DNA of 51,046 bases, taken from a virus (lineage: Duplodnaviria > Caudoviricetes). The stretch covers positions 1-51,046 of IMG/VR virus record IMGVR_UViG_3300032261_000008; one strand, 5' to 3'. Below, in pieces: positions 2,359 through 51,046 of the stretch. The notes beneath the pieces are model-generated. The model was given only the letters and a program-made list of their open reading frames with translations. It did not search any database and had not been told where the DNA came from. Both the position numbers and the translations under genes were made by a program. How positions within the stretch are numbered: the first letter of the stretch is position 1; every line of letters begins with the position of its first letter.

Positions 2359-3322
2359 TCCGTTTTTCCTCTTCTGTTTTCGCCTTGGGTTGGACTTCAG
2401 GATGGATCATCTGCAGCCAAAGCGGCGTCTGCAGTGAGTCCGCCAATCTAGAGATCGAATGAGGCTCTACAGCCTTTTCAGTCTGCTTCTTGACGGGACT
2501 TGGTACCGGCAGGGGTACTGCCACCGACGATGGTCTAGTGATAGGCCCCGAAGCCACATGCGGAACTTGTTTTGGCTTCGAGGTTACGGCGTCGGCCCAG
2601 TGTCGGCATTTCTGGTGGCCTTCGTCGTAATTGGAACACGGGCGTTCTTTGCCCGTTGCGCCCTCGATCAACATAAGCGTTCCCGAAGGCAGAGATGCTG
2701 TTTGCACCGAGGCGTAGGTCGCAGGCAAAGCAGTTGGCGCATAAACCGGCGCCGGCCGAGGCATATACTGCCCGCACACTTCGGGCATCGAGTTATAAAC
2801 TTCCGTCGTCTGACATATCCGGGCCACAGCCGCCTTCTTGAGACCCATGGACCACAAAGTTCGACTGTCTAAACGCGCACTACAGTCTCGATCAGGGATC
2901 GAACCACCAAGTGTGATCCCAGTCCCGAGCCAAGACCCACCGCCGCTCACCGAACCAAGGCAGCTTTCGATCCCCGCGGCCGCGAGCCCCGGCGCAAAAA
3001 CCGACGGAACAGTCGAGACCGAGCTATGGCCAACGTTATCGATGGTGCTGGTGCTGGTCGTGGAAGCCGGACCCGGGTTGATGATGACAGCGCCGCCGAC
3101 AGCGGAGCCGCCCGTACCAACTCCAACACCTACGCCAGTCCCGCCTTTGCCGCCTTGACCGCCCTGACCCGAGATCGCCGTCGCCTGCGATGCAGAGATC
3201 GAGGTCGACTTAGCCGCACCGACACCTATCGCAGTGTTACTACCCTGCTGAGGCAAACCACCCGCAAGCGCAGGTGTAGCCGAGAGCGCCAAGAACGTGG
3301 CGCCCAGAAACAACGTTTTCAT
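2294..3322 (-). CDS. Secreted Gly-rich, Cys-containing protein (MKTLFLGATFLALSATPALA...)
   Basis: Signal peptide after GGGGAG RBS; ...CLGSVSGG...DRDCSARLDSRTLWSMGLKKAAVARIC core. Confidence 0.85.
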   Translation of the reverse strand: MKTLFLGATFLALSATPALAGGLPQQGSNTAIGVGAAKSTSISASQATAISGQGGQGGKGGTGVGVGVGTGGSAVGGAVIINPGPASTTSTSTIDNVGHSSVSTVPSVFAPGLAAAGIESCLGSVSGGGSWLGTGITLGGSIPDRDCSARLDSRTLWSMGLKKAAVARICQTTEVYNSMPEVCGQYMPRPAPVYAPTALPATYASVQTASLPSGTLMLIEGATGKERPCSNYDEGHQKCRHWADAVTSKPKQVPHVASGPITRPSSVAVPLPVPSPVKKQTEKAVEPHSISRLADSLQTPLWLQMIHPEVQPKAKTEEEKRNEESLVRCLGVCVAPGNGGRS

Positions 3323-3562
3323 GTGGAATGCTCCCCTATATGGAATACGATGTGATGCATTTGATCTGGGGCACCAGTTCACAGGAGATAAGACCGGTGC
3401 CCCAGAGGCGGGCGTTATTTCATGACCACGGACACCTCCCGCTGGTCCATGTCACAGAACCTCGACGCATATGCCTAGATCTCTGCGCCAAGCCCCCTGT
3501 GCCGGGGTAACAACACGTGCAGTGTTCACTTGTTTATGTCCGCATTGTGTCGATCGAGAACA

Positions 3563-4048: not shown

Positions 4049-5542
4049 TCAGTCCTCCTTTGCTATCGGCCATCTCGCGTTTCTTCCCTTGCCCCGCACC
4101 CACGCGATATTGCGATGGGTGATCCAGTTTTTCGTATCCCTCGAGATCGCCGGCGCAGCCCGCACGTCCTTCATGGCGTTGGGCCATACCTCAAACCGCT
4201 CGCGATATACATTGGCAGCCCAGCCCGGCTTCCACCCCTTTAGCTGGGCATAGGCCAAAAGCTCGGCGTAGAACACGCGCCGATCAATACTCGCCCGCTC
4301 TTCCTTCTTCTTGCGCTCGATCTCTTTAAGCTCACCCGGTGTCGGCTCAATCGTGCAATGCGCCACAGTCACATGCTGACACATCGGGCATTTAGACATG
4401 CCGGGAGCTTTCAAAAAACCACAGGCGGGGCATTCCTTCGGCAGCCTGATGCGATCAGTTACGCTCGCAACGCGGTCGGTGTCCGCCAATAATTCAGTAT
4501 GGTTGACATCGATATCCGTCACAAAGCCGAGGTTCGAATGAGTGCTGGTATGATCGAGAACTAAAAGGAAGTCTTTGCCGGGAGCCGTCCGCAGGCCACG
4601 CCCCATGATCTGCACAAACAACATCTCGCTCTTAGTCGGCCGCGCCAGGATGATACACCTGACATCCCAGTCTATGCCCATTGTCAACGTACCAATATTC
4701 ACCACGACCTCGATCGAACCATCATGAAAGCCGCGCTTGATCTCGGCGCGACCGTTTGGTGTCGTGAATGCATCCTGATAAGCGGTTCTGACGCCACGCG
4801 CCTCAAATTGCTCGTGCAGCTTCTTCGCATGCGTGCGATCGACAGCAAAGCATAACGTCGACCGACCGCGACCCTGCTCGATCCATGTCTCGATGATATC
4901 CGCGACCAGCTTAACCTTGCTCATACGTCGTGACAGTTCGCCCTTTTCATAGTCGCCCTGCACCGTCCTGACCCCATCAAGATCCGGATGACTCGATGCA
5001 TAAACTTTGAAGTCGGATAGCAAGCCCTTGTCTATCAATTCCTGCGTCGTCGATGCTTTGATCAGCCGCTTGAAATATGTCCCTAACACTTTGTGCCAGG
5101 GCGTAGCCGATAAACCGATAACAGGCTTTTCCCACCATACCCCAGGTGTCTGCATCCACGTGCCATAGGCATCGGACCAACGATGCACCTCATCTATCAC
5201 CACGACGTCGGCCGGCGGCATCTCACGTCGCTGCAACGTCTGCACCGAGGCCACCTGTACCGGCATGCAGCCATCCGTCTGCCGATGGTTCTGCTGGATC
5301 ACCCCGATATCGCTGATGCCCTGCCCATTGAACATCTCGACCGTTTGATCGATCAAAGAGATCGCAGGAACGATGAAAAGGACTTTCTTGTCTTTCATGC
5401 GCGCCCTATTCACCAGTTCAGCCGACAATACCGTCTTGCCATAGCCTGTCGGCGCCTGCATCACGATATGCCTGTCCCCCTCACCAACCGCCGCCCGCAA
5501 ATTATTCAACGCCTCGGTTTGATCCTCCCGCAATGACCTCAT
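4049..5542 (-). CDS. Superfamily 2 DEAD/DEAH-type DNA helicase with C-terminal zinc ribbon (RadD/YejH-like)
   Basis: APTGYGKT Walker A, DEVH, SATP, QIMGRGLR, CPACG..CPMC. Confidence 0.95.
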   Translation of the reverse strand: MRSLREDQTEALNNLRAAVGEGDRHIVMQAPTGYGKTVLSAELVNRARMKDKKVLFIVPAISLIDQTVEMFNGQGISDIGVIQQNHRQTDGCMPVQVASVQTLQRREMPPADVVVIDEVHRWSDAYGTWMQTPGVWWEKPVIGLSATPWHKVLGTYFKRLIKASTTQELIDKGLLSDFKVYASSHPDLDGVRTVQGDYEKGELSRRMSKVKLVADIIETWIEQGRGRSTLCFAVDRTHAKKLHEQFEARGVRTAYQDAFTTPNGRAEIKRGFHDGSIEVVVNIGTLTMGIDWDVRCIILARPTKSEMLFVQIMGRGLRTAPGKDFLLVLDHTSTHSNLGFVTDIDVNHTELLADTDRVASVTDRIRLPKECPACGFLKAPGMSKCPMCQHVTVAHCTIEPTPGELKEIERKKKEERASIDRRVFYAELLAYAQLKGWKPGWAANVYRERFEVWPNAMKDVRAAPAISRDTKNWITHRNIAWVRGKGRNARWPIAKED

Positions 5543-5793
5543 TGGCAGCCCCCCTGAGCGGTTTTCCACTGCTCGAAGCTGTCCGGTAGCCCGGCAGGCA
5601 AATGATCGATGGTGGTGCCCTCTGCGCCCTTCTCACGCAGGCATCTGGCCAGGACATCTCTGTCCGACCGGACAAACGACACATTGCGCCACCGTTTGGA
5701 ACTTTCATGACGCTGCAGGATCCACTGAATACCGTCACTCGCCAGCGCCCAACCGTCCGCGACCGCAAATTGCTTATCCTCAGTCGACTTCAT
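5539..5793 (-). CDS. Hypothetical protein (MKSTEDKQFAVADGWALASDGIQWILQR...)
   Basis: 4-nt ATGA overlaps with both neighbours. Confidence 0.75.
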   Translation of the reverse strand: MKSTEDKQFAVADGWALASDGIQWILQRHESSKRWRNVSFVRSDRDVLARCLREKGAEGTTIDHLPAGLPDSFEQWKTAQGGCQ

Positions 5794-5990
5794 GCCTTCA
5801 CTCCCCATCGTTTGAACTTCACGATCAACGCAACATGCGTCTTGTCGCAACAAAACCGTTTCGCAATGACGCGGTGAGCAATACCGGCCGCCGCCATCAT
5901 CCTGATCTCGATCACGTCAAGCCACGTCAGGCGGGCATGGGGGTTATTCTCGCCGGATCGATGTCCGTTTGCCGGCCAAACCTTGCTCAT
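5790..5990 (-). CDS. Small HTH DNA-binding protein resembling the C-terminal domain of phage HNH endonucleases
   Basis: GENNPHARLT..DVIEIR...IAKRF...V..IVK...W pattern; no HNH core. Confidence 0.7.
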   Translation of the reverse strand: MSKVWPANGHRSGENNPHARLTWLDVIEIRMMAAAGIAHRVIAKRFCCDKTHVALIVKFKRWGVKA

Positions 5991-6304
5991 TGCGCACCCC
6001 CATTCCCAACACGGGGCAAAACCTCATCAGGCTGATCGATGTCGCCCCATGTGGTCTGAGCAACCCGGCCAACTTCCTCCGGTATCGCCCCAACTATCCA
6101 GCCCAGCCCAGCCTCCCTGATCCACGCCAACGCCGTATTGCTCCCGATCAGGCCATTCCTGAGCGCTACCCCAATAGTCGTCATGTCTGCATCCCACGTT
6201 TTTGCCCTGAGGCTGGCGGCCCGAAGCGCGGTCAGCAAAAATTCGCGGTGAATGTCTTCCTGTGCGTCGCTCATGGTTCTGTTTCCCGTCCGTCGTTTCG
6301 TCAT
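5987..6304 (-). CDS. Hypothetical protein (105 aa)
   Basis: GGAGGAGCATCAC upstream; ATGA overlap downstream. Confidence 0.75.
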   Translation of the reverse strand: MTKRRTGNRTMSDAQEDIHREFLLTALRAASLRAKTWDADMTTIGVALRNGLIGSNTALAWIREAGLGWIVGAIPEEVGRVAQTTWGDIDQPDEVLPRVGNGGAQ

Positions 6305-6325
6305 GCTGTGATGCTCCTCCCTGTA

Positions 6326-6652
6326 TTATCGGCAGGGCTCGCCTGACATCTCCGCTAGCACGTCCATCACCACGTCGCGGCCCTTGATGATCGGCGGTTT
6401 TGACGGTGCTAGTGATGGATTGCGGGAGATGTCGTATGGCGTCGGTTTGTACAGGTCCTTAACCTTTGGCGGCTTCTTGCGCTGCTGTTGCTGCAGCCAT
6501 TGCCGTTCTGCTTTGCGCGCCTTCGCTTCGAGCGTATCCCGTGCTTCGTTGTAGACCATGCGTCCGGTACGCTTGATCACCGTGCCATGCTCCAACCTCT
6601 CCTCCCTTGCTTTGAATTTTCGCGCCCGTCCCCAGTTCATTTTTCCGGTCAC
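6326..6652 (-). CDS. Basic hypothetical protein (108 aa)
   Basis: GTG start with AGGAG RBS; first gene after the long non-coding region. Confidence 0.7.
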   Translation of the reverse strand: MTGKMNWGRARKFKAREERLEHGTVIKRTGRMVYNEARDTLEAKARKAERQWLQQQQRKKPPKVKDLYKPTPYDISRNPSLAPSKPPIIKGRDVVMDVLAEMSGEPCR

Positions 6653-6674
6653 CGTGTTGCTCCTGTTTCCTGAA

Positions 6675-7088
6675 TTTTAGACATACTGCCCCATTTCTTT
6701 CCTGAGATAGCCTAGTAGGCTTGTCTCTCGTCCGGTCCCCGGACGGCGGGCGCGCTGCCCGGCGGAAAGGTCTTTCTCAGGTGGTTCGCCAGCCGTAAAC
6801 GGGTCAAACCGGGCAAGCCCAATAGCCTGCATTCCCTCTGGCAAGGGTATTACGACCGAAACCGGCTTCTATGGGGCGGGACATCCGTGCGACACCCAAC
6901 AGCTCGGTTTCAGACCGACCACTGGGCAGGACAAACGATCCCGTCCAGAGGTTTTTTGGAAACCACCGGTGGAACCTGCTTGCAATTTGTGGGGGGTGTG
7001 TTAAGTAAGAGACACAACGACCGCAATTCCAAACATTTCGGTAGTTTCAGAGAGGGCCAGCGCTGACAACGTCTGGCCCTTTCGCTTT
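6675..7088 (-). ncRNA. Putative long structured RNA / replication-primer-like leader
   Basis: No credible ORF; many hairpins (6704..6727, 6729..6745, 6834..6847, 6904..6918, 6929..6946); upstream TTGCAT-N17-CTTACT promoter. Confidence 0.5.
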
Positions 7089-7089
7089 T
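7010..7089 (+). ncRNA. Putative ~80-nt antisense (countertranscript) RNA
   Basis: TTGCAA (6980) ... TAAGT (7002) promoter-like site, then hairpin AGGGCCAG/CTGGCCCT (7053..7080) + TTCGCTTTT. Confidence 0.5.
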
Positions 7090-7090
7090 G

Positions 7091-7120
7091 TAGTAAGCCT
7101 CAATTCAAACCGTCATGCAA
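7091..7120 (-). promoter_or_regulatory. Putative sigma70 promoter driving the structured RNA and helicase operon
   Basis: TTGCAT (7120..7115), 17 bp, CTTACT. Confidence 0.45.
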
Positions 7121-7175
7121 GTGTTAAAAATATCACACTGGAAGATGATACCGCATCGGCCGTGGGTATTGTAAT

Positions 7176-8477
7176 ATGGCGCATGAACAGCTTGTAAAAA
7201 ACAAAGTTCTTCTATGTCCGGGCGATGCTTGGCATTTTTTGAAAGATACTCCAGACAACAGATATGATGCGGTCGTGACCGACCCGCCTTATGAATTGGG
7301 TTTCATGGGCAAAGACTGGGATCGTCGCGGCATTGCGTTTGATGCAATGTTCTGGGCTGAAGTGCTTCGTGTTCTCAAGCCTGGTGGCCACCTTACAGCA
7401 TTTGGTGCCTCTCGCAATTATCATAGGATGGCCTGTGCGATCGAGGATGCAGGCTTTGAGGTTCGCGATAGCCTGATGTGGATCTTTGGGACGGGGTTCC
7501 CGAAGTCACATGACATCAGCAAAGGGATCGATAAAGCGGCAGGGGCGGTACAGGAAGTTGTCGGTACTCGACCCAATGCCGTGCCATCTTATAGAAATAG
7601 CGCCAAAGGCGACGGCACAAAAACCAATGACGGGCGCGACGCCGCCAACTGGGATGAATATAAGGCGCGCAGCACAAAGAATATTACTATCGCGTCAACC
7701 GCCGCCGCCCGCGAATGGCAAGGTTTCGGCACATCTCTAAAGCCAGCATTCGAGCCCATCGTTCTCGCGCGCAAGCCGCTGTCGGAAAAGACCGTTGCCG
7801 CCAACGTGCTGCGCTGGGGAACGGGGGCGATCAATGTTGATGGGTGTCGGGTTGGCATTCGAGAGAAGCCGAAAGTAACTAATCCTAAACGCACTTCGAA
7901 CACCTATGGTGCAATTGAATCGCCGGGCGGAAAACTACTACCGGATAGCCGCTGGCCGGCTAATATCTGCCACGACGGCAGCGACGAAGTGGTGGGGATG
8001 TTTCCGATGACCGGGCCGAGCAATGTGCGCCGCTCCGAAAACGAAGACATCGCTCAATCGACTTGGGCGTTAGGACGTACAGGCATCACGCCGAGGGGCG
8101 TATCGGATAACGGCGGCTCCGCCGCCCGCTTTTTCTACAGCGCAAAAGCTGATAGCAATGATCGCATCGCTTCCAAACATCCGACTGTAAAACCTATCGA
8201 CTTGATGCGATGGTTGATCCGTCTTGTAACGCCCCCCAATGGCTTAATATTGGACCCGTTTGCAGGAACTGGAACAACGGCCATTGCTGCGCTCTATGAA
8301 GGTATGCGATGCGTCTTGGTCGAGAATGAAAAAGAATACCAGGATGATATCAAACGCCGCATGAAATTATACGGAATGGGACCGGACCAATACGCCTATG
8401 AATTAGCGAAGTTGAAACCAGTCGACCTTGGACCACTTTTTTCTTATTCCAATATTTCTGCACTCGATGGCAAATGA
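7176..8477 (+). CDS. DNA N6-adenine/N4-cytosine methyltransferase (beta class)
   Basis: TDPPY catalytic motif before LDPFAGTGTT SAM motif; HPTVKP; GFPKS. Confidence 0.95.
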   Translation: MAHEQLVKNKVLLCPGDAWHFLKDTPDNRYDAVVTDPPYELGFMGKDWDRRGIAFDAMFWAEVLRVLKPGGHLTAFGASRNYHRMACAIEDAGFEVRDSLMWIFGTGFPKSHDISKGIDKAAGAVQEVVGTRPNAVPSYRNSAKGDGTKTNDGRDAANWDEYKARSTKNITIASTAAAREWQGFGTSLKPAFEPIVLARKPLSEKTVAANVLRWGTGAINVDGCRVGIREKPKVTNPKRTSNTYGAIESPGGKLLPDSRWPANICHDGSDEVVGMFPMTGPSNVRRSENEDIAQSTWALGRTGITPRGVSDNGGSAARFFYSAKADSNDRIASKHPTVKPIDLMRWLIRLVTPPNGLILDPFAGTGTTAIAALYEGMRCVLVENEKEYQDDIKRRMKLYGMGPDQYAYELAKLKPVDLGPLFSYSNISALDGK

Positions 8478-8953
8478 TAAGCCTTCGCTCGGTTCCATAT
8501 TTTTAGAACCTTGAACTGGTCTTGGTGAAATATCCCGAACTGACTGTCGGGGGGGTCGTTGACCTTGATCGCGTACGGCTGCAGATCAAAAGGAAAGGGA
8601 ATTTCCAGAATTGAGTAAGCGTCTATCTTCTTTTCGTCCTCGCTTACGAAACCATAAAGAAAATACTTCACGGTCCCCTTTCTGATCTTGTCAATCTCAG
8701 TCAGCGTACCATTGGGGCGAGACCATCTGATCGTGATATCGAATGGATGAGCAATAAGCCACTTGGCTGTGCGCAGCCGAAGCGCGCACCTGATCGTCGG
8801 AGCCGCCAGCACAAAAAAGTCCGTCGCTTCTTTCTGATCGGCCCACTGGTCCTGAATAAAGCTTGAAGCATCCAACCCGAAGAACCGGCCAAGAATGCGC
8901 TTGACCATATCGGCATGATGCTTTTCCAGGCGCATGTCATCCTGAACAGTCAT
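8444..8953 (-). CDS. Hypothetical protein, possible PD-(D/E)XK-like nuclease fold
   Basis: D...ATDFFVL...CALRLR...DITIR...TEIDKI pattern; coupled to the MT-A70 gene. Confidence 0.55.
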   Translation of the reverse strand: MTVQDDMRLEKHHADMVKRILGRFFGLDASSFIQDQWADQKEATDFFVLAAPTIRCALRLRTAKWLIAHPFDITIRWSRPNGTLTEIDKIRKGTVKYFLYGFVSEDEKKIDAYSILEIPFPFDLQPYAIKVNDPPDSQFGIFHQDQFKVLKIWNRAKAYHLPSSAEILE

Positions 8954-40224: not shown

Positions 40225-42764
40225 TGTTGGCCTTCTGATGGCCCCTGTAATGCCCCCGCCATTGCCGTAAAGCGGGCAATATCACTCGTCCGCCTGTTAT
40301 GCTCGTCCTGCTGCCTCAGCTGCTGCCCCTTGAGCCCCTGGTCGCCGGTCTGTTTCCGCCTTTGCAGCTCGCGTTCTGCCTGCTGGTTGTTCTGATCCAT
40401 CTGCATCTGTTGCGCATCCAACTGCTGCTGCCGGGCCGTTAAATGCGCCTGAATGCGATCGGTCAAGGCCTTGTGCCTGGCAGTCTCCGCCGTGTGGCGA
40501 TCGATCATGGCGCCGTGGGTTTCGACCGCAGCACCATGCCGGGCTACTGCGCGGTCGGTGGCGTCGTTCATCATGTTGCTGGCATGCTGCTCGCGATCGA
40601 TATTGCCCTGCTGCATGGTGTTGTGCGCGTCGATCAGCGCCTGATGCGCCTTGGCCCGATCCAGTTCAGCCTTTGCAGCCGTACTCATGGCGTCGATATG
40701 ATGCTCAAACCCAGCCACGTCGTTCTTGGCCATCAGGTTCTGCGCCATGGCCAAGTCGTAAGTCGCCGTCGATGTCGTGCCGCCGGCCTTCGCATTCTGC
40801 ATTTCCGCCGTGCTCTGATCCTTGTTGATCTCCGCCACCAGCTTAGAGATCGCCAGCTGCTTCATCGTCTCCTGCCACTGCTGCTGGCCCGGATCGGTCT
40901 GCTGCTTCTTGGCAAAGGTCTTCTTGAGCGCATCAACAAAGGCGGCCGGCAGCGGCGAATACTCCAGCGCCAGGATCAATAGCTCTGGATCAGACATGAA
41001 TTGTTCCTTGAACGCCGAGAGCATCGGCTGCATCACCGCCCAATTCGCCTCTTTCATGTTGGGCGACGTCGGCGCATCATCGACCACGACGTCATAGGTG
41101 CCTGTCGTCTTGTCCTTTGTCACCGCCACCACGCCGGCAAATTCCTGCCCGGCCACCCGCACCATCGTGCCATCCGGAATACGCGTCTGAATAAAGAATA
41201 GCCGCTTGCGTCCCACGATCTTGAGGAAACCGCGCAGGCTGTCAAACATGGTCGCAAGCACCGTCATGCCAGCCTGCTTGCGCATGTGCTCGATGATGCC
41301 AGGCTGGTCCTTGTCGGCCTGTCCGAGCAGTTCGAGGTTGATGCCGGTCACTGCCGTAATTGACTGGATCGCATAGGTAAGCAAGTTGACATAGGCAGAA
41401 GCATCACCCTGACCAGGCTTCGGCATAACCTTGGGTTTGTTGCCGCTCAATGCCCCCGGCGCCATCCACGTAATGCCCTCCGGCATCGCATAGGTCTCTT
41501 CCGCCTGCCGTTGATCATCGAACGCATCCGCCTCGGCGAGAATACCGCCCTTGGCCGTCGAGTTCATGATCTGCATGATCTGGGACATGAACTTGTTGGC
41601 CCACAATTGCGGATCGCGCATCACCCGCACCAAACCATACCACTGCCGCTTTTTGGCATCGAAGGCGCCTGTAATGACGCCCCATGAAAACTGCTGGCCA
41701 CAGGGCGCGGGATCAACCTTATCAAGTAACCCTTCGGCACCGAGGAAAGCCTGGTAGTAACGCCAGCGAAAGGCCTTACGCGAATGGATGGCGATGTTGG
41801 TACCAACCTTCTTGCCGATCTGCTTCATGCGCCCGGCGATCTTGGCATACTGATCTTCGTCATACTCCTGCACAGTGTTCGTTGCGGCATCGGCAACGCG
41901 CCAATAAGGCTCCTTTTCGCGCCATTGCACCACCACCACTGTTACCTCATTGCGATCGTCATAGTCCTCCCATAGCGCGGTATTTTCGTTCCGAATGCGC
42001 TTTTCCTCGATGCTCTTGAGCGTGGCCTCATCGAGGTAGTTCTGGTTGGCCCATTGCGCATCGATCTGCAGCCGGGTCTTACCAGGAAACATCTGCAGTG
42101 CATCGATCAACGGCATCCGGCGCAGCCGTCCCATGCGTCGCGCATCACGCAGGTTTTTCTTACGCGAGGTGCGGTCCCAAACGAACTCGCGACTGTCGAT
42201 CTGTTCCTCGATATATGATCCTTCCGGCTCGTTCTCATAGGAATAACGCGACTCGGAAACACCTAAACCAGTGCCCAATGCCTGCTGAAATGACTCTGAC
42301 TGTTCGTCTTCGGCATCACAGCCATCACCCATCCATTTCGACGTCGCGGTAAGCAACTCATTCTTGGCACTGTCGGCATTGTTGCGGGGAAGGAAGTTGA
42401 TCTCATGCCGGCCATTGATCTCCATGCCGGCAATGGCGCGCAGAATGGTCTCAACCCGGTTGAAAACAATATGCGGCCGGCCCTGCTCGTCTAACAGCTG
42501 CTTATCTTCATCCGAAAGCTGATCGCCAGAGACAAAGCCAAGGTCGTCGGTGGCTTGTTTGCGCCACTTCAGGGAATATTCGAGATCGGAAATGATATTC
42601 GCTTTGAGGATACGGAATTGCTGCTGCGGCGGCTTCTTCGACAGAGGGATCAGCGCGCGACGGTCGGCCTCATCTGTCCCCGACATCCCATCATGTTCTG
42701 AACCCGGTGTAACGTCCGAATAGTCAACATCGTCCAGAACTGCCGCCGCTGCGTTCCGCGCCAT
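40221..42764 (-). CDS. Portal protein (P22-like) with long C-terminal barrel
   Basis: GDQL...GRP.IVFN, YGLVRVMRDPQ..ANK, GTYDVVVD.AP. Confidence 0.93.
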   Translation of the reverse strand: MARNAAAAVLDDVDYSDVTPGSEHDGMSGTDEADRRALIPLSKKPPQQQFRILKANIISDLEYSLKWRKQATDDLGFVSGDQLSDEDKQLLDEQGRPHIVFNRVETILRAIAGMEINGRHEINFLPRNNADSAKNELLTATSKWMGDGCDAEDEQSESFQQALGTGLGVSESRYSYENEPEGSYIEEQIDSREFVWDRTSRKKNLRDARRMGRLRRMPLIDALQMFPGKTRLQIDAQWANQNYLDEATLKSIEEKRIRNENTALWEDYDDRNEVTVVVVQWREKEPYWRVADAATNTVQEYDEDQYAKIAGRMKQIGKKVGTNIAIHSRKAFRWRYYQAFLGAEGLLDKVDPAPCGQQFSWGVITGAFDAKKRQWYGLVRVMRDPQLWANKFMSQIMQIMNSTAKGGILAEADAFDDQRQAEETYAMPEGITWMAPGALSGNKPKVMPKPGQGDASAYVNLLTYAIQSITAVTGINLELLGQADKDQPGIIEHMRKQAGMTVLATMFDSLRGFLKIVGRKRLFFIQTRIPDGTMVRVAGQEFAGVVAVTKDKTTGTYDVVVDDAPTSPNMKEANWAVMQPMLSAFKEQFMSDPELLILALEYSPLPAAFVDALKKTFAKKQQTDPGQQQWQETMKQLAISKLVAEINKDQSTAEMQNAKAGGTTSTATYDLAMAQNLMAKNDVAGFEHHIDAMSTAAKAELDRAKAHQALIDAHNTMQQGNIDREQHASNMMNDATDRAVARHGAAVETHGAMIDRHTAETARHKALTDRIQAHLTARQQQLDAQQMQMDQNNQQAERELQRRKQTGDQGLKGQQLRQQDEHNRRTSDIARFTAMAGALQGPSEGQQ

Positions 42765-42790
42765 GTCTCATCTCGCTGGATACCCGTCTC

Positions 42791-43279
42791 TCAGCCCCCC
42801 ATCCTCTTTTCCAGTATCTTAAGCCGCTTGTCGAAGTCATCGAGATATTCGATCATGCTCTTCGGCGGCGCATTGTATTCCCCATACATCTGTTGCCGCA
42901 GCACGTTGATCTTGTCCTGCAGCATCACCGCATTGTCGTCGGTGGCATCGTACAGCATCTCAAGCGTCAATTGGCTTGGCCTCGGTTCATTCTGGATCGG
43001 TATGACCGCAGTCCAGCAATGATGCTGCTGCTGCTCACTATACTCATGAACCCGCTGCTCCCAGATCACATCCTCAGCCTCAAAACAAACAATGAGGTCG
43101 ACCGAGCCATCGTCCTCGTGCTGCTTGAGCACGACCGCGGGAAACTCAGTGCGTCCCTGTCGCATTGCACCATGGCGGCCGCGATAGACCACCCAATTGC
43201 CGATCCCAACACGTTTGATCTTCTGGATATTCGGATCGGCCTCAGCCATCCGCTTTGTCGTCTCCATGAGATGGCTCAC
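42791..43279 (-). CDS. Hypothetical protein (SH3-like N-terminal domain)
   Basis: IGNWVVY...PAVV....DGSVDL.V. Confidence 0.7.
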   Translation of the reverse strand: MSHLMETTKRMAEADPNIQKIKRVGIGNWVVYRGRHGAMRQGRTEFPAVVLKQHEDDGSVDLIVCFEAEDVIWEQRVHEYSEQQQHHCWTAVIPIQNEPRPSQLTLEMLYDATDDNAVMLQDKINVLRQQMYGEYNAPPKSMIEYLDDFDKRLKILEKRMGG

Positions 43280-43532
43280 TTTGGGGTACCTCCTTCATAA
43301 ACTGCTTGGCCGCCTTGATCGCTAATTCATTGATATCCTCGCGCAGAGGTGCCTCGATCTCTACCGTATGCTCGGTTCCCCCGGGATCAATAACACGGAA
43401 TGTCAAAACCTGCCACTGACCCTTGCCATCCGAGGTGGCACGATAGTTCATCAAGCCGTCTTTGAGACTATAGCCAGCTGGCAACTGATCTATGAAGTGC
43501 TGTCGCACCAGCCTTATTCCCGAGAGCGGCAT
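43242..43532 (-). CDS. Hypothetical protein (MPLSGIRLVR...)
   Basis: Overlapping operon position, GGAG RBS. Confidence 0.65.
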   Translation of the reverse strand: MPLSGIRLVRQHFIDQLPAGYSLKDGLMNYRATSDGKGQWQVLTFRVIDPGGTEHTVEIEAPLREDINELAIKAAKQFMKEVPQSEPSHGDDKADG

Positions 43533-43801
43533 TTCTTCTTCTCCCATGCCTCGATCATACGCTCGCTATACTCATCCGCAGCCATCAGCCTGTTTCGATC
43601 ATCAAGCTTAACCTCAATGACGTTACAACGGTCAGAGGTTGGCGGTGCGTCATAGTCGGTCACCCTGGGATCATGCCAAAGCTGAATGCGATATCGGCCA
43701 TTGGGGCCAAGGCGATCCATCAACATATGATGGGCTTGATCCAGCTGTGTCGCATGGCTGCACTCAAACATATACATCGCAGTACCTCGGTCTCTCATCA
43801 C
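43514..43801 (-). CDS. Hypothetical protein (95 aa)
   Basis: Operon position. Confidence 0.65.
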   Translation of the reverse strand: MMRDRGTAMYMFECSHATQLDQAHHMLMDRLGPNGRYRIQLWHDPRVTDYDAPPTSDRCNVIEVKLDDRNRLMAADEYSERMIEAWEKKKCRSRE

Positions 43802-43813
43802 TCTTTCCTGTCA

Positions 43814-43832
43814 AAATACTTGCACCAGCCCT
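43814..43832. repeat. 19-bp direct repeat AAATACTTGCACCAGCCCT (partner 44636..44654)
   Basis: Exact match; the two copies flank the PAPS-reductase-like gene. Confidence 0.9.
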
Positions 43833-43834
43833 GA

Positions 43835-44614
43835 CTATACACCGCACATCCCCTCACATTCATTGTTGAAAAGATCAGGCTGACCGATCTCGGCATCACT
43901 GCGAAGATCTACTTCCGCCAACAGCTTGCATGACCGATGCATGAATTGTTGTCCTTTCATCTTCGCCTGATGGCGGATGGCTGTATCGACTTTAATCGCA
44001 TCAGCCAATTCCTCACTGCTCAATGACCGCCATTGCGCATCAGAATGAAATGGACACCCAATGCAAGAAGACTTCGGAGCATTCCAACCGGCGCGATCGA
44101 GCCACGCATGACAGTCCGCACGGTTCATTCTTAATTCGATCAATGGCCATCGGTTAACGACATACTGCACGCGCGATGGTTTCATGCGGAAAGCTTCATC
44201 GGTGGAGATGCCAAGCCACATCTCCGTGGCACCCTTTGCGCGCCGACCGCCGTACATCTCCACGATCTTGCGACGAACTGGCTCGAGCTTGTAATGCGCA
44301 GTACATTGCCGGCGACCCATGCCGATCGATCCATCAGTCTTGATAATAAACCAGGGAACCGCAGCATATTGTCCAGCGCGAGCCGATACCCCGGCGATCA
44401 TGTCATCGCGAATATTGCTCGTGCTGACCCGATAGACTGGAAACGCTAAAACTTTCTCTAGCCGGCCAAGATGCTCGTAGACCGCCCTAGGCTCCCAACC
44501 CGTATCGGCAAAGATCGCACAGTCCGGCATAGGTCCGATCTCTCGCTTTGTCGCCATCAACGCAAGCGTCGTCGACTGCACACCAGCCCCGAGAGAAATG
44601 ATCCTCAATACCAT
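43835..44614 (-). CDS. PAPS-reductase/PP-loop-family protein (phage type, Cys-rich)
   Basis: ISLGAGVQST, FADTGWE, RQCT..YK, GISTDE, KSSCIGCPF, CEGMCGV. Confidence 0.85.
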   Translation of the reverse strand: MVLRIISLGAGVQSTTLALMATKREIGPMPDCAIFADTGWEPRAVYEHLGRLEKVLAFPVYRVSTSNIRDDMIAGVSARAGQYAAVPWFIIKTDGSIGMGRRQCTAHYKLEPVRRKIVEMYGGRRAKGATEMWLGISTDEAFRMKPSRVQYVVNRWPLIELRMNRADCHAWLDRAGWNAPKSSCIGCPFHSDAQWRSLSSEELADAIKVDTAIRHQAKMKGQQFMHRSCKLLAEVDLRSDAEIGQPDLFNNECEGMCGV

Positions 44615-44619
44615 AATTA

Positions 44620-44784
44620 TCACCCCTTCCGATCGAAATACTTGCACCAGCCCTTCGGACTGATCAGCCCCTTCACGATCTTGCAGCCATCCGGCTCAAT
44701 GAAAAACCTGCACAGCGCGCAACGCTCGTTCATGTATTTTGCCCAAGACGTATAGTCTGCCGCCTCCTTGCTCATGGTACCCAT
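44620..44784 (-). CDS. HiPIP-like [4Fe-4S] mini-protein (54 aa; not in ORF track)
   Basis: RCALCRFFIEPDGCKIVKGLISPKGWCKYF matches the HiPIP four-Cys pattern; AAGGA RBS. Confidence 0.8.
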   Translation of the reverse strand: MGTMSKEAADYTSWAKYMNERCALCRFFIEPDGCKIVKGLISPKGWCKYFDRKG

Positions 44785-44800
44785 TATGTTTCCTTATTCG

Positions 44801-44995
44801 TCATAGATCATCCACAAACTGGAATAATTCGATATCCGTAAAATATCTGGTCCAGGCCGGATCTTGCCTCACATGCGTAAGAAAGGCCGCCTTGGCATGA
44901 TCGTGATCCTTCGCAAACCGCAGACACGCCGGCCATAGCTCATCCATATCCCATTCGCGTTTCCATTTATCAAACCATCGTCTTATAACGCCCAT
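44801..44995 (-). CDS. Hypothetical protein (64 aa)
   Basis: Overlaps the TerL end. Confidence 0.6.
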   Translation of the reverse strand: MGVIRRWFDKWKREWDMDELWPACLRFAKDHDHAKAAFLTHVRQDPAWTRYFTDIELFQFVDDL

Positions 44996-46545
44996 TGCGA
45001 GCCTTTCATTTTCTTTTTCTCCTTGCTGCGGCTGCCATCCGCCAGCCAGATGCCGTCAGGCTTCAGTCCGACCGCCCCCGTCATCCCGGCGTCAGCCGCA
45101 TTGCTCGCCCAATTGTGCAACGGGACCGACGTCCACTGTGCCAGCTGTTTGCTCCACGTCTTGCGGTAATTATCGAGGCATTCCACCAGCCTCGTACAAT
45201 GCTCGCTATCGATCCACGTCAATGACAGCATCTTGCGCAACGCCTCGATCGCATCCTCCTTGTCAAGTACCCGAGGCACGATCTCGAAGTCGATCCCAAG
45301 GTCTGACGCTATCTCCTTCCGCGTCTTCGCATCATTCGCCCAACTGCGATGGCCAATATCATGCGGGCCATAATGTTTGCCAAGCGTAAAGCCACGCTTT
45401 GCAGCGATCTCATGCACCTTGCTGGCATAATGCTGCACGCCCTCGCCAACGTTCTCGTAATAGTCGATAATGCGATGCCGCGTTCCGTCCGTCTGATGAA
45501 ACCAAATAGCGTTCTGGTTATTCTTGGTTTCCAACCCGATATCCCAGAACGTATTGACCAAATAGTTGGGATCATGCGGGATCGGATAGCCTATCCTGCG
45601 CTCTTCTCTAGCCTTCTGCATCTCCTTCTTAAACCACGTGCCCTCCATCGAATTGTAGAAGGTCTCTTCCATCATGCTCGGAAATTCCGAGTGCATGTCG
45701 TCGCGCCCGAGCGTCTGATGCTTCAGCACATACCAAGCTTTCTGCTCCGGCGTCAGACTGATGGCGTGCTTGTGGAACAGAATATCAAAATAGTCGCGCA
45801 TCTCGCTGCTGATGATCGCAAGGTTGGTCTGCACCGCATATTTCGGGTCCATCCACCATGCGAAAAAATGTAACCTGAAGTCTAGCTGTGACAGCGACTG
45901 CCCTGAGCGCATCTTGGCCTCGGCGGTCTGCACCATGTCATAGAATTGACCGCTTGTGCCGTGCGCGGTGCTTTCGATCTTTACCTTTTGACCGGGGGCG
46001 ATGGTATTTAAGGCGCCCGTTTTTATCTCGCGTGCAATATCCGGTTTGTCCGTCGCTATCTTCCCATACTCCGATATATGCAAATACTGCAGCGTCCCAC
46101 CGCGGTGGCTGGTCCCCACATAACACGTAGATCCGTTTGACCATTTAAGCTCCTCTTCGTTGTCCTTGATCAACCGGATCGTTTCGCGCACCGAAGACGG
46201 CGTCCCTATATAGGCGGTCCTAACCTTCTGCAGCTTCAGCTTGGCATCATCCAGCGTATAGTCGATGATGCCTGCCGTGAAGTTCTTGCGCCAAATACAA
46301 TGATCGGCAATGTCTATGGCTATCTCAGAAGACATGCCAAGCTGCCGGGCCTTGACCACGATATCAAGCAGCCATTGCTCTCGTGCATACTTCTGTTGAG
46401 CTACCCGCCGCCGATAGGGCACCAATTGCCCCTGTTCATTAAGGATCGAATACAGAGAATTCATCCGCCTATCACGATCGGAAAACCGATAGCGCAAGTC
46501 TTTATAAATGTCTGACCCCTTGAGAATAGAAACTGGTTCGGTCAT
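44983..46545 (-). CDS. terL: Terminase large subunit
   Basis: KARQLGMS Walker A, RGGTLQYLHISE Walker B, ESTA, TFWDIG, HNWASNAADA. Confidence 0.95.
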   Translation of the reverse strand: MTEPVSILKGSDIYKDLRYRFSDRDRRMNSLYSILNEQGQLVPYRRRVAQQKYAREQWLLDIVVKARQLGMSSEIAIDIADHCIWRKNFTAGIIDYTLDDAKLKLQKVRTAYIGTPSSVRETIRLIKDNEEELKWSNGSTCYVGTSHRGGTLQYLHISEYGKIATDKPDIAREIKTGALNTIAPGQKVKIESTAHGTSGQFYDMVQTAEAKMRSGQSLSQLDFRLHFFAWWMDPKYAVQTNLAIISSEMRDYFDILFHKHAISLTPEQKAWYVLKHQTLGRDDMHSEFPSMMEETFYNSMEGTWFKKEMQKAREERRIGYPIPHDPNYLVNTFWDIGLETKNNQNAIWFHQTDGTRHRIIDYYENVGEGVQHYASKVHEIAAKRGFTLGKHYGPHDIGHRSWANDAKTRKEIASDLGIDFEIVPRVLDKEDAIEALRKMLSLTWIDSEHCTRLVECLDNYRKTWSKQLAQWTSVPLHNWASNAADAGMTGAVGLKPDGIWLADGSRSKEKKKMKGSQWAL

Positions 46546-46551
46546 CGCGCA

Positions 46552-46920
46552 TCACAAGAATGAAGCCGCGTCGCAGAACGAAAAGGTCGCTCCCGCGTTC
46601 CAGTTGATATAATTAAAACCCGATAGCCGTCGCGACAAATTCCCGGCTGTGCGCGCATTGCTGGCAAGTGGCCCAAGTAACTGCAACTCATATCTAATTT
46701 GCTGGTTATCCGGAACCTCAATCCCAAGCACCCTTGCCGTGTCAATACCCGGGCCAGGGAAGATGATCGACACCGGCGTCGCACCATTGGAAACCCCCAG
46801 CGCGCTCCATACGGGGGGTTCTTCAGCAAGCCACACCGTATCCACCGCCATGCGCCGCTGATGCGAGACAAACATTTGCGCAAGGCCGTTGTACCCGAAG
46901 ATGCGGACCGTGAAAGCCAT
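46552..46920 (-). CDS. Hypothetical protein (122 aa)
   Basis: TGATG coupling, operon position. Confidence 0.75.
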   Translation of the reverse strand: MAFTVRIFGYNGLAQMFVSHQRRMAVDTVWLAEEPPVWSALGVSNGATPVSIIFPGPGIDTARVLGIEVPDNQQIRYELQLLGPLASNARTAGNLSRRLSGFNYINWNAGATFSFCDAASFL

Positions 46921-47120
46921 CAGTGTCTTATCCCTATCGAACCAAACCGGCGCTTGCCGACCGGCTTACCTTTGTGCACCCGCGCCGGAAGGTGCTTATA
47001 GGCTCCCGGCCCATGTGGTGATGCCGCTATGAACTCCCGCGCCACCTTTGCGGTCTTCTCTGGGGCATTTTCTGCTGCCCAGCGAGCCCACCGGTTTTGT
47101 GCCAAAGACACGAGCGGCAT
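46920..47120 (-). CDS. Small basic phage protein (MPxxSxAQ type)
   Basis: MPLVSLAQNRW...VAREF...LPARV; GGAGG RBS. Confidence 0.75.
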   Translation of the reverse strand: MPLVSLAQNRWARWAAENAPEKTAKVAREFIAASPHGPGAYKHLPARVHKGKPVGKRRFGSIGIRH

Positions 47121-47138
47121 TTCACCCTCCTCATCTAT

Positions 47139-47225
47139 TTACCAACCGGACTTTGGCTTCGGCCTGCGCCAGCTAGGCTTTGGCTTCGGTCTGCGAGGCG
47201 GCTTGGGTTTTGGTTTCCTTGCCAT
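47139..47225 (-). CDS. 28-aa Lys/Arg/Pro-rich peptide MARKPKPKPPRRPKPKPSWRRPKPKSGW
   Basis: GAGGAG RBS; open to TAA 47141..47139. Confidence 0.6.
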   Translation of the reverse strand: MARKPKPKPPRRPKPKPSWRRPKPKSGW

Positions 47226-47328
47226 TTCGTTCTCCTCATTTTCACCTACGGGCTTGGCTTTACTGGCGATGCCCTGCTGGAACCGCCAGTAAACATCTTT
47301 GATCATCTACGAACCTGGCCACCCCCTG

Positions 47329-47907
47329 TTACCTACGGGGTTGGCCACCGCTGTAGGCGACTGAACCACTCGCGGAAGCTGAACCGCTTGCGCTCCCGCT
47401 GCCGCCGTCCGGGGGGACCGGTTGCGGCTTGCCACCTCCGCCCGGTGGGTACCAGATCAGAACAAAACCCCACCTGTTCGTCCAGTACCATTGCCAGCCC
47501 TCGCTAAGCCCACCATCGGGCGGACATATCGGCGGCTTTTCCGGTGGGGTTGGCGGTTCTGGCAGCACGATCGGATGCGCCGGATGGGGCGGCATCGGCC
47601 GCGCCCACGGCGGCGAATAACCCGGATCAACCGGAGGCTCGGGATAGTGGATCGGCGGTGTCGCCACTGGAGGATAATAGATCGGCGGCGTCGCTATGCC
47701 AGCAGGAGGATAGTGGATCGGTGGCGTGACCACAGCATCTGGAGGCCATACCCCAGGCGGTTGGTAGATCGGATGCGCCGGATAGACCGGGGGTGTCGCG
47801 ATCGGATGCGCAGGAACAGGCGGCGGTCCAGGGATGCCATAGCCTGGATCGACCGGACGCTGCTGATCATCAAGCAGAATGATGTACGCAAGAGAACTCC
47901 TCGCCAT
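47329..47907 (-). CDS. Proline-rich repeat protein (PVDPGY / HPI..PP repeats)
   Basis: AGGAGG RBS; internal repeats; WYW..RWG C-terminal motif. Confidence 0.8.
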   Translation of the reverse strand: MARSSLAYIILLDDQQRPVDPGYGIPGPPPVPAHPIATPPVYPAHPIYQPPGVWPPDAVVTPPIHYPPAGIATPPIYYPPVATPPIHYPEPPVDPGYSPPWARPMPPHPAHPIVLPEPPTPPEKPPICPPDGGLSEGWQWYWTNRWGFVLIWYPPGGGGKPQPVPPDGGSGSASGSASASGSVAYSGGQPRR

Positions 47908-47921
47908 TGTGACCTCCTAGC

Positions 47922-48290
47922 CTATTGGTTATCCGCCATGAACCCGGGGGGAAGCACATTCCCCATCCCACCGGTAACACCGGGGACCGCTGTCGGTGCG
48001 CCCATGTCCGGTAACGAGGCCGCAGCGCCCGGAACGGGTAAAGGCGCAGCAACGGGCCGTTTCTTTCCGATCGCCCCAAAGGGCGCTTTCGGCAATGCTG
48101 GCATTTTGGGGATACCAGGCGGGGCCGCGATCGAAGCGGCGATCCTGTCATGATGGGCTTGCGTGATGTGCCCCTGCTGCAGCAGATGTTTTGCACTGGC
48201 ACGGGTCAGGTTGCGCATATGAGACGGCGTCTGTGCCATCATCTGAGCCGGTGTCTTTGTCATCATCATATGAGCTGATATCTTTGCCAT
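47922..48290 (-). CDS. Hypothetical Pro/Ala/Met-rich protein
   Basis: Operon position. Confidence 0.65.
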   Translation of the reverse strand: MAKISAHMMMTKTPAQMMAQTPSHMRNLTRASAKHLLQQGHITQAHHDRIAASIAAPPGIPKMPALPKAPFGAIGKKRPVAAPLPVPGAAASLPDMGAPTAVPGVTGGMGNVLPPGFMADNQ

Positions 48291-48332
48291 GATAGCGACC
48301 CTTTCTCAAAACGCCGGCACCGTATCAGACCA

Positions 48333-48572
48333 TCATGACAGATGCCATATTCTCACGAGTTTGAGCCCCTTTTCGGTGCGCTGCATCTTCCACAGATGGC
48401 CCTTCTGATCGGCGAATACCTGCATGAGACCGGCTTGCTCTGGCAGCATGGCCGCCTGCCACGGTATCTCATCGATACCGCCGTTCAAGATCATATACCG
48501 GATGGTATTATGGTTGGCCTTGATCTGTTCGATCGGCGTCAGTCGGCCGCCATCATCCGCGCGCTTATCCAT
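48333..48572 (-). CDS. Hypothetical protein (79 aa)
   Basis: GGAGGGG RBS. Confidence 0.65.
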   Translation of the reverse strand: MDKRADDGGRLTPIEQIKANHNTIRYMILNGGIDEIPWQAAMLPEQAGLMQVFADQKGHLWKMQRTEKGLKLVRIWHLS

Positions 48573-48588
48573 TATGACCCCTCCTCGA

Positions 48589-48630
48589 GAAAAAGGGCGG
48601 CGGAAGGAGCATCACCACCTCCCGCCGCCC
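48589..48630 (-). terminator. Intrinsic terminator with a 10-nt loop UGGUGAUGCU
   Basis: 13-bp stem GGGCGGCGGGAGG/CCTTCCGCCGCCC + TTTTT. Confidence 0.8.
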
Positions 48631-48680
48631 CGGCGTCGCACGCTTGCTGCTGCTGCAAGGACCATACGCCAAGCCACATT

Positions 48681-49004
48681 CTATCTCTGAGGTTCCACAT
48701 GGTCAACTGGGGGCTTACTCTCGACTGGAAGCTTATTCCCTTCGGTCTCGACTCGGGGCTTATTACCTTCGATCATCTGCTGCACGACCTCGCAAGTCTC
48801 AATGACCGCCACCGCCTTGCCATCAGCCAAATTGATCAGGCAATTGGTGGCCTTGTGATACATCCGATCATGCTCGGTCACACCTTCCCGCGGCCCACGC
48901 AGACTCGTTATCTGATCCGGGTTGACCTCAATGGCCGCGCCATCAGCACCATGCAATAGAATAAGAACGAACAGGAAGAGCATATCTTCCCCCATCTGTT
49001 GCAC
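48681..49004 (-). CDS. FlbD-like small protein with hydrophobic N-terminus
   Basis: ILLHGADG..IEVNPDQITSL...INLADGK.VAV.ET...V...I. Confidence 0.55.
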   Translation of the reverse strand: MQQMGEDMLFLFVLILLHGADGAAIEVNPDQITSLRGPREGVTEHDRMYHKATNCLINLADGKAVAVIETCEVVQQMIEGNKPRVETEGNKLPVESKPPVDHVEPQR

Positions 49005-50800: not shown

Positions 50801-50811
50801 TGTTGCCTCCA

Positions 50812-50861
50812 TTCATCTCATGTAGGTCCCAACAAGTTCATCTCATGTAGGTCCCAGCAAG
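50812..50861. repeat. Tandem 25-bp duplication spanning the stop of 50843..51025
   Basis: TTCATCTCATGTAGGTCCCA(A/G)CAAG x2. Confidence 0.9.
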
Positions 50862-51025
50862 TAAAAACCATCCGCACCCAAAAGAAGCTCACCGTCAGCC
50901 CCCACCAAATAAACCAACCCAGACCCCAATAAATAAGCACCATCTCCACCCTGAAGGAACGCGCCATCAGCCCCCTGCAAATAAACTAACCCATCCGGTG
51001 GAACAGGAAGCTGAGGCTCAAACAC
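50843..51025 (-). CDS. Small repeat protein (L.GADG.YL repeats), probably 5'-incomplete
   Basis: Repeats of LxGADGxxL; near the window edge. Confidence 0.65.
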   Translation of the reverse strand: MFEPQLPVPPDGLVYLQGADGAFLQGGDGAYLLGSGLVYLVGADGELLLGADGFYLLGPT

Positions 51026-51046
51026 AATGCGCCGCGCGCTCTCGAT

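Follow-up and report, generated by a model that had tools for sequence, protein, structure and literature searches.

A conserved, structured non-coding element in the initiator-gene slot of a P22-like podophage: a candidate RNA-initiated origin of replication

The locus and its genomic setting

The window analyzed here, a stretch of 51,046 nt that makes up the linear IMG/VR record IMGVR_UViG_3300032261_000008 (78% complete), carries the gene set of a P22-like podophage, with a portal, a capsid protein, ERF, YqaJ, two methyltransferases and a superfamily-2 helicase recognized in Pfam and PHROG scans. Two solved relatives of the helicase (4049..5542, minus strand; ResIII/Helicase_C, phrog_16) were found, one of them RadD, and the best relatives from cultured phages are only ~37% identical; a 59% identical helicase is encoded on a Bradyrhizobium MAG contig, which suggests an alphaproteobacterial host. 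An overlapping record (G001), with a helicase identical to that of the window, matches window positions 42548-51046 at 100% over 8,499 bp, and this overlap closes the genome and exposes the ~12.8 kb missing from the window. The exposed part contains a repetitive, Thr/Gly/Ser-rich frame of 2,164 codons (L134, 5009-11503) that has no confident family match and is possibly a surface or tail protein; the window itself ends in a gene-free segment with short direct repeats (50843-51046).

Three small genes on the minus strand separate the helicase from the region of interest. The first encodes a 66-aa protein (5790..5990) with a weak match to the tail of an HNH-endonuclease family (phrog_20467, E 1.5e-4). 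The second encodes a 105-aa helical protein (5987..6304) that is kept between the slot discussed below and the helicase in RNA-type and initiator-type relatives alike; its structure model (mean pLDDT 75) yielded no fold match in a structure search, and a search for longer homologs returned nothing. The third, directly behind the RNA that we denote type B, encodes a 108-aa basic protein (6326..6652) without a Pfam or PHROG match that belongs to a family of 25 unnamed or hypothetical proteins. All 16 loci found with the profile of this protein carry a type-B RNA upstream; among them are five distinct new sequences, which were reached via the neighboring protein rather than via the RNA and all of which proved to be RNA-bearing. 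The 108-aa protein is a candidate partner of the RNA or of an origin.

Upstream of these genes lies the slot itself (6653-7120), which had been described from sequence alone as a long structured RNA with a facing antisense RNA where a replication initiator gene would sit. The presence of a structured non-coding stretch is confirmed. No open reading frame of at least 60 aa (ATG, GTG or TTG starts) lies inside 6674-7175, in agreement with that description, and each of the six frames of the 237-nt core is interrupted by stops. Folding gave z -3.42 for the minus strand of 6653-7095 (none of 100 shuffles as stable) and z -2.45 for the plus strand of 6653-7120 (one of 100). On the other side of the slot (7176-8477), a DNA methyltransferase gene points away from it, opposite to its neighbors, and is absent there from the mapped relatives.

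Database searches with this region were negative. Rfam gave no match in the window at gathering score, no relevant match at E<=10, and none in the RNA-slot regions of homologs; a blastn search of 6600-7200 against 50,697 phage records returned four short matches (E>=2), none from a mycobacteriophage; and among 72,556 plasmids the window region had a single 31-bp chance match, with none for the corresponding regions of two relatives (L116 and L076). We found no paper that describes this RNA element, and the motif did not occur in the four of the nine supplementary files of PMC10690425 that were searched. We conclude that the structured element of the slot is real and is uncatalogued in the libraries searched.

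A conserved 5' module with facing promoters

Comparison with relatives gathered by helicase-based and pattern scans reveals a common plan of the slot that consists of a 5' module, a variable middle and a purine-rich tail before the first gene. The 5' module (~170 nt) recurs in 21 loci and comprises a promoter, hairpin I and hairpin II, the last of which encloses a facing promoter. The predicted leftward promoter (7092..7120, minus strand), with a -35 element at 7120-7115 that is conserved in most of the 21 loci and a weak -10 element at ~7097-7092, would produce a non-coding RNA of ~410 nt (6680..7090, minus strand; z -3.42, no Rfam match) that runs into the helicase operon. The predicted rightward promoter inside this RNA (6980..7007, plus strand), for which a matching -35/-10 pair is seen by eye at the corresponding place in homologs, would produce an antisense RNA of ~78 nt (7013..7091, plus strand) that is complementary to the 5' end of the long RNA and is predicted to fold into two stem-loops followed by a U tail (z -3.72 for 7012-7092). 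Hairpin I (7050..7085) is the first stem of the long RNA and, on the plus strand, the predicted antisense terminator, with a U run at 7086-7089. Hairpin II (6959..7048, minus strand) is a long stem; the antisense RNA covers its 5' strand and would set its 3' strand free.

Both hairpins pass a pairing test across the 21 loci: cognate strands pair better than non-cognate ones in hairpin I (-22.7 vs -14.5 kcal/mol, permutation p<0.0002) and in hairpin II (-9.3 vs -7.2 kcal/mol, p<0.0002), with a control at p 0.81. On the antisense strand, 12 of the 21 loci have at least four consecutive U residues after hairpin I, as judged by eye; in the remaining loci the U runs are shorter or lie within the stem. 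The position of the facing promoters postulated in the sequence-only reading is conserved across the 21 aligned loci, but a consensus scan of 5500-8500 listed neither of them, nor the antisense terminator, and the leftward -10 element is weak, so that the case for these elements comes from conservation.

Single minimum-energy folds of three loci illustrate how the antisense RNA might act. When the part covered by it is left out, hairpin III and P4 of the core are predicted to refold in the window, and the fold of a second locus (L151) is altered. In the third locus (L071), a protein initiator gene follows, and the fold predicts that the freed strand pairs with the ribosome-binding region of this gene, a region that is partly paired in the full leader as well.

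The type-B RNA core

The middle of the slot in the window is the type-B core, an RNA of ~240 nt (6688..6924, minus strand) with helices P1-P6. It was aligned across 13 sequences, most of which are 50-69% identical, with two further pairs of groups at 76% and 81-95%. Four helices covary, namely P1 (6917-6904/6869-6853), P4 (6830-6813), the long-range P5 (6803-6797/6697-6691) and P6 (6781-6775/6707-6701); P2 (6903-6867), a hairpin with a conserved loop, and P3 (6847-6834) are nearly invariant. All of these elements are on the minus strand, as is the purine-rich 3' tail (6676..6710) with a conserved motif at ~6686-6679, which, by inference, is a candidate zone for hybrid formation or for the switch from RNA to DNA.

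In the 13-sequence comparison, the energies of cognate and non-cognate pairing were -13.3 vs -8.8 kcal/mol for P1, -11.1 vs -6.6 for P4, -11.0 vs -8.6 for P5 (p 0.0004) and -9.8 vs -6.1 for P6. All four helices reach p<=0.0004, and p<=0.0008 with 10 sequences after three near-duplicates were dropped, compared with p 0.39-0.70 for controls (0.63 and 0.60 for the two control pairings of the 13-sequence test); the windows for this test were chosen by eye, and neither its statistics nor those of the alignment test that follows correct for phylogeny. On the plain alignment, 85% of the cells pair, compared with 77% in shuffles and 40-49% when the partners are slid, and both sides have changed in 18 of 35 pairs, a value that none of 500 shuffles reached. 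P4 attains only 58% pairing on the plain alignment because its register shifts. Consensus folding favors the strand of the long RNA (-15.4 vs -7.9 kcal/mol). The folding energy of the core is ordinary in the homologs (mean z -0.48 over the 13 sequences; -2.46 in the window).

These data refine the structural details of the sequence-only reading. Its five hairpins all lie at the positions given for them, but the one at 6904-6918 lacks homolog support, and 6904-6917 pairs instead with 6853-6869. Both of its long-range pairs are likewise present in the sequence; the one between 6701 and 6775 is the covarying helix P6, but the one between 6686 and 6924 has no backing from homologs, which support the pairing of 6691-6697 with 6797-6803 in its place. 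In most of the 13 homologs, the proposed ColE1-like processing motif at ~6679-6686 recurs 4-8 nt past the last helix as a loose pattern seen by eye, and its likeness to the ColE1 site is only loose. In the window, an 11-codon frame (6684-6649) begins at this motif and overlaps the next start codon.

Several other interpretations of the core gained no support. A group-I-like pseudoknot and a loop-loop contact, both seen by eye, were not backed by the pairing test (p 0.06 and 0.17 for the crossing helix that the pseudoknot needs). The pattern of the conserved loop matched the leaders of ffh genes (Rfam ffh sRNA, RF01793) in bacterial genomes, which was judged to be chance: the pattern matched 20 of 401 bacterial genomes, a control pattern matched about as often, none of 15 fetched bacterial loci matched the type-A, type-B or leader profiles, and the type-B loci gave no ffh match to RF01793 at E<=10 or E<=1. 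One locus (L092, ~3060-3170 and 3185-3374) has, by eye, a second, partial P2-like hairpin upstream of its type-B core.

The slot as an exchangeable cassette

Relatives that are 83-99% identical on both flanks hold in the slot either a type-B RNA, an unrelated pseudoknotted RNA (type A) or a gene for an O-like initiator with iterons. The presence of a protein initiator at exactly the slot position in close relatives is the strongest support for the initiator-slot interpretation and goes beyond what the sequence-only reading could see. The clearest case is the comparison of a type-A locus (L004) with an initiator-type locus (L071), whose sequences agree at 93.6% over 172 bp in front of the slot and at 91.5% over 566 bp beginning with the tail, with unmatched middles; in the antisense zone identity drops to 72% over 82 bp, that is, the antisense loops diverge between close relatives whose flanks exceed 90%. 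The middle of L071 encodes a 108-aa HTH_36 O-like initiator (phrog_1032, E 6e-19) followed by iteron-like repeats. An initiator also occupies the slot in L108 (phrog_1408) and, apparently, by eye, in L008 and L009; type A and type B RNAs are absent from all four of these loci. Three further loci (L072, L074, L075) hold three unrelated middles between flanks that are 83-99.5% identical, and L078 and L080 combine identical helicase N-halves with different middles.

Among 43 helicase loci (duplicates included), 7 carry type B, 13 type A and 6 the 5' module only, one of these six with a protein initiator; 17 have none of these. The profiles used for this count are sequence-only models built in part from the same loci, so that for those loci the searches are circular. 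On a tree of 28 chosen helicases, the slot labels require 15 changes, compared with 15.8 for shuffled labels; slot type thus does not follow the descent of the helicase. By these sequence comparisons, the slot behaves as a swappable cassette. The purine-rich tail is common to RNA-type and initiator-type slots, and the gene that follows the slot differs, being that for the 108-aa protein, the 105-aa protein, a primase or, in L123, a 252-aa protein.

The type-A middles, of which nine sequences were compared (L004 4248-4459, L006 3772-3969, L076 2824-3022 and six more), contain a covarying H-type pseudoknot (p<0.0002) with an inserted hairpin, followed by a long stem closing on a G-rich strand. 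They have no match in Rfam, ribozymes included. A core pseudoknot is a feature of group I intron-like or self-cleaving ribozymes, and the strand order of type A presumably resembles that of the glmS core, as judged by eye; the type-A RNA is a candidate self-cleaving RNA. Additional middles that are unrelated to types A and B, fold strongly and end in a purine-rich tail are found in L074 (3041-3330; z -3.6 sense and -4.6 antisense) and L091 (2031-2480; z -5.2). Two loci have an antisense leader with an unstructured middle: L078 (1033-1230; z +0.7), with short direct repeats, and L087 (2523-2780; z -0.7), with an inverted purine-rich tail.

The pattern scans yielded many spurious matches: 37 of 40 in metagenomes were unrelated and the other three were copies of known loci, 5 of 15 were unrelated in the first viral scan, and 1 of 7 in the second type-A scan. 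Eight of the metagenome contigs (L030, L031, L036, L037, L038, L042, L044 and L054) share a recurring sequence without a phage link at the pattern match, and none of them matched the profiles built here. Downstream of helicases we also observed a Proteo-phage-1 RNA (Rfam RF03044; L006 8270-8357) and ~550 bp of short GC-rich repeats (L099 5761-6307).

Search for a protein initiator elsewhere in the genomes

The closed genome yielded no initiator, primase, polymerase or integrase. The earlier statement that no primase, initiator or polymerase is visible holds not only for the window but also for the ~12.8 kb outside it; the sequence-only reading had allowed for a conventional initiator or primase in that part, and family searches detected neither. 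No initiator, primase or polymerase was recognized by PHROG and Pfam among 27 of the 126 listed frames of the part outside the window, among 46 of the 274 window ORFs (30 of them in one of the two scans), or among 143 picked ORFs of two further genomes (G004 and G009). In six-frame family searches, each over five records whose set differs between families, phrog_1408, HTH_36, phrog_391 and tyrosine integrases had no match in any record, and phrog_270 matched one (G007), in its C-terminal part only; the window record had no match for four initiator families and the overlapping record none for three. ParA and ParB were absent among the 46 window ORFs and the 27 of the part outside it, save for a 40-residue match to phrog_795 (E 5e-4) far from the slot.

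Other genomes of the group differ in this respect. The primase of L006 has matches in G003, G005 and G008 and none in G001, G002, G004, G006, G007 and G009; G003 and G008 thus encode their own primase beside a type-A RNA, so that an RNA primer is not needed there. Stand-alone C-terminal domains of an initiator (phrog_270) are found in RNA-bearing phages (L126 3401-3814; L141 ~8500-8945). Two genomes combine such a domain with a type-B RNA: in G006 it stands right behind the RNA and the 108-aa homolog, and in G007 behind a gene that reads as DnaB-like by eye. In lambda O, the N-terminal half is the origin-binding one, and the arrangement in these two genomes looks as if the RNA had replaced that half of the initiator. 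An unfamiliar initiator could be hidden among the orphan proteins. Fourteen of the 17 helicase loci without the RNA module, which belong to more distant relatives, have no initiator evident by eye in their listed ORFs either, so that a missing initiator does not by itself require this RNA.

Strand asymmetry

Genes of either orientation show an excess of G on the strand of the long RNA at four-fold sites (+0.136 vs -0.237, p 3e-20), and the skew is the same on both sides of the slot, without a flip at it. In G004 and G009 the difference is weak (p 0.003), and G006 and G007 show none. Genes on the opposite strand are few. G-richness is a mark of the leading strand, and the skew fits one-way replication along the direction of the RNA without locating the origin.

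A proposed RNA-initiated origin and the alternatives

Taken together, these comparisons describe, as far as sequence can, a slot that is non-coding, conserved and covarying and is exchanged with initiator genes, in a genome that lacks a known initiator; the long structured RNA with a facing antisense RNA in the initiator slot, as originally proposed, is supported by this comparative evidence. Given that the predicted RNA sits where close relatives carry an initiator gene, it is likely to start DNA copying without an initiator protein. The explanation that we favor, and consider moderately probable, is an RNA-initiated origin under antisense control, similar to those of ColE1, the Vibrio MRB plasmids or mycobacteriophages. 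Under this model, in which both transcripts, the R-loop, the priming and the antisense control are inferred, the host RNA polymerase would transcribe leftward from ~7090 and the transcript would fold into the covarying core, a structure backed by comparison. By analogy, its purine-rich 3' part would stay hybridized to the template near 6680-6710 and open the duplex; the RNA end would then serve as primer for the host polymerase, or the replisome would be loaded by the displaced strand, and the phage helicase and both small proteins would act as helpers. Replication would run one way, leftward. The predicted 78-nt antisense RNA is likely to control such an origin: by binding to the first 80 nt it would release the 3' strand of hairpin II and cause the core to misfold, and the outcome may be copy control or incompatibility between related phages.

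Several observations speak against an RNA origin, including the ordinary stability of the core in homologs, the 17 of 43 helicase loci without the RNA module, and the slots with an unstructured middle (L078 and L087). The transcript, moreover, would run straight into the operon, with no terminator seen in the consensus scan between the RNA and the first gene, which is leader-like. This brings up an explanation that we regard as fairly unlikely, namely that the long RNA serves the helicase operon as its 5' leader, switched by the antisense RNA between read-through and termination or a translation block, and that replication starts elsewhere or via the helicase and orphan proteins. In L071, the 5' module stands in front of a protein initiator, with a predicted pairing of the freed strand and the ribosome-binding region, and hence the module can serve plain gene control; in addition, P5 has a purine-rich 3' strand, after which a start codon comes in 11 of the 13 sequences, by eye. 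The short ORFs that begin there, however, vary in frame and length and are absent in two of the 13, the first real gene has its own ribosome-binding site ~25-35 nt beyond P5, and the downstream gene is not constant. A leader would also leave unexplained the one-for-one exchange of the middle with an initiator gene plus iterons and the missing N-terminal initiator domain in RNA-bearing complete genomes.

The structure might instead act at the level of DNA, as a single-stranded site for loading a primosome or primase or as a protein-binding site, with transcription only aiding the opening. Covariation cannot separate RNA from single-stranded DNA, an ambiguity raised for the plasmid motifs ARRPOF, GEBRO and PAGEV in the part of PMC5737381 that deals with them, and the purine-rich tail of both slot types, the short repeats without a stable fold in L078 and the inverted tail of L087 would fit such a site. 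However, the G-U pairs favor one strand, as the consensus energies indicate, and a transcript is indicated by the conserved promoter at which the structure starts and by the conserved antisense unit that overlaps it; we consider an origin of this kind improbable. That the slot holds a decayed initiator gene or functionless chance hairpins is largely refuted already and appears highly improbable. The slot has the size and place of an initiator gene, and a 13-codon stretch reads alike in several homologs, but indels break the frame, 5 of the 13 cores have stops in all three sense frames, and a coding reading of the conserved loop was rejected; the ordinary folding energies of the homologs would suit chance hairpins, but four helices covary against controls.

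Extended to the whole group, the RNA-origin model would imply that these phages start whole-genome replication from a folded RNA that replaces the origin-binding half of a lambda-O-like initiator, that one antisense module is followed by cassettes exchanged among protein initiators and two or more unrelated RNA folds, and that phages like this one encode no initiator or primer source other than the RNA. We put this forward tentatively and consider it rather doubtful in its full form. The contrast between ColE1 and ColE2 can be likened to such a single control module in front of an RNA or a protein initiator.

Comparison with known systems

Short terminated antisense RNAs over the leader of a replication gene are known from repABC (the counter-transcribed RNA), ColE2 (RNA I) and P4 (CI RNA). 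Leaders of this type fit L071, where an initiator gene follows, but the window has no initiator gene after the RNA, and the slot RNAs have no Rfam match to the repABC, ColE2 or P4 CI RNA families.

As far as the available parts of the sources go, the slot RNA is laid out most like the MRB and ColE1 systems and fails sequence membership where this was tested. In ColE1, an antisense RNA of ~110 nt with three stem-loops faces a long RNA of 550 nt (PMC5043065, in the portion seen). The likeness extends to the absence of an encoded initiator, a predicted long RNA from an upstream promoter, a predicted short antisense RNA at its 5' end and a purine-rich end zone, but the slot antisense RNA (~78 nt, two stem-loops) and long RNA (~410 nt) are shorter. 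The original interpretation is partly supported, in its RNA layout and its initiator slot. There is no sequence relation to ColE1-type origins: neither Rfam nor the plasmid blastn search gave a relevant match, and the slot lies in the helicase operon of a tailed phage. For the slot, a persistent R-loop with RNase H processing and Pol I priming as in ColE1 would be an analogy.

The closest system in layout, with two overlapping opposite RNAs that match the predicted ones, is that of the MRB plasmids, described in the accessible part of PMC3035462: an origin of ~500 bp without Rep, a 68-nt two-loop RNA I with a terminator and an RNA II of 250-500 nt. RNA I variants confer compatibility there, and pES213 keeps only the RNA I core, the remainder being unrelated (same source). 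In contrast to the slot, MRB plasmids belong to Vibrionaceae, and exchange with initiator genes is not described in that part of the source. As far as the plasmid collection represents MRB members, the searches with the slot regions of the window, L116 and L076 gave no match to the conserved 110-bp MRB RNA I core.

Prophages of cluster A mycobacteriophages use either RepA or an RNA for replication, with RNA origins of ~500-600 bp that lie next to parABS, serve the prophage only and can be deleted with normal lytic growth (PMC7157519, in the sections covered). These are likewise phage origins with a non-coding RNA whose relatives use a protein initiator or an RNA, but no antisense RNA or structure is described in those sections, and the slot lacks parABS and heads the helicase operon of a P22-like podophage in which no other origin system was found. 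The blastn search of 6600-7200 against the 50,697 phage records detected no homology to the RedRock, Alma and LadyBird origin regions. The T4 origins oriF and oriG (~100 bp) combine a promoter with a downstream unwinding zone and use the RNA as leading-strand primer, with the UvsW helicase involved (PMC3016281, as excerpted). They resemble the proposed slot origin as phage promoter-origins with an RNA primer and a helicase acting on branched nucleic acids; in contrast, no large folded RNA or antisense control is described for T4 in this excerpt, and T4 encodes its own replisome. For pLS20, the portion of PMC8557374 consulted describes no RNA mechanism.

Implications

RNA-initiated replicons that have been tested are few, comprising, in the sources as far as they were covered, ColE1, the MRB plasmids and the prophage origins of mycobacteriophages. 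The natural swapping of an RNA and a protein initiator between near-identical flanks provides for a direct test of whether the RNA does the job of the initiator and of which of its parts count. The predicted antisense negative control, together with the absence of a detectable tyrosine integrase, suggests a plasmid-like carrier state or the exclusion of kin. If the RNA-origin model holds, it would account for the replication of many uncultured phages that carry a lone helicase, and it would introduce plasmid-style copy or incompatibility control into phages without an integrase. The slot RNA might also yield small replicons for alphaproteobacteria.
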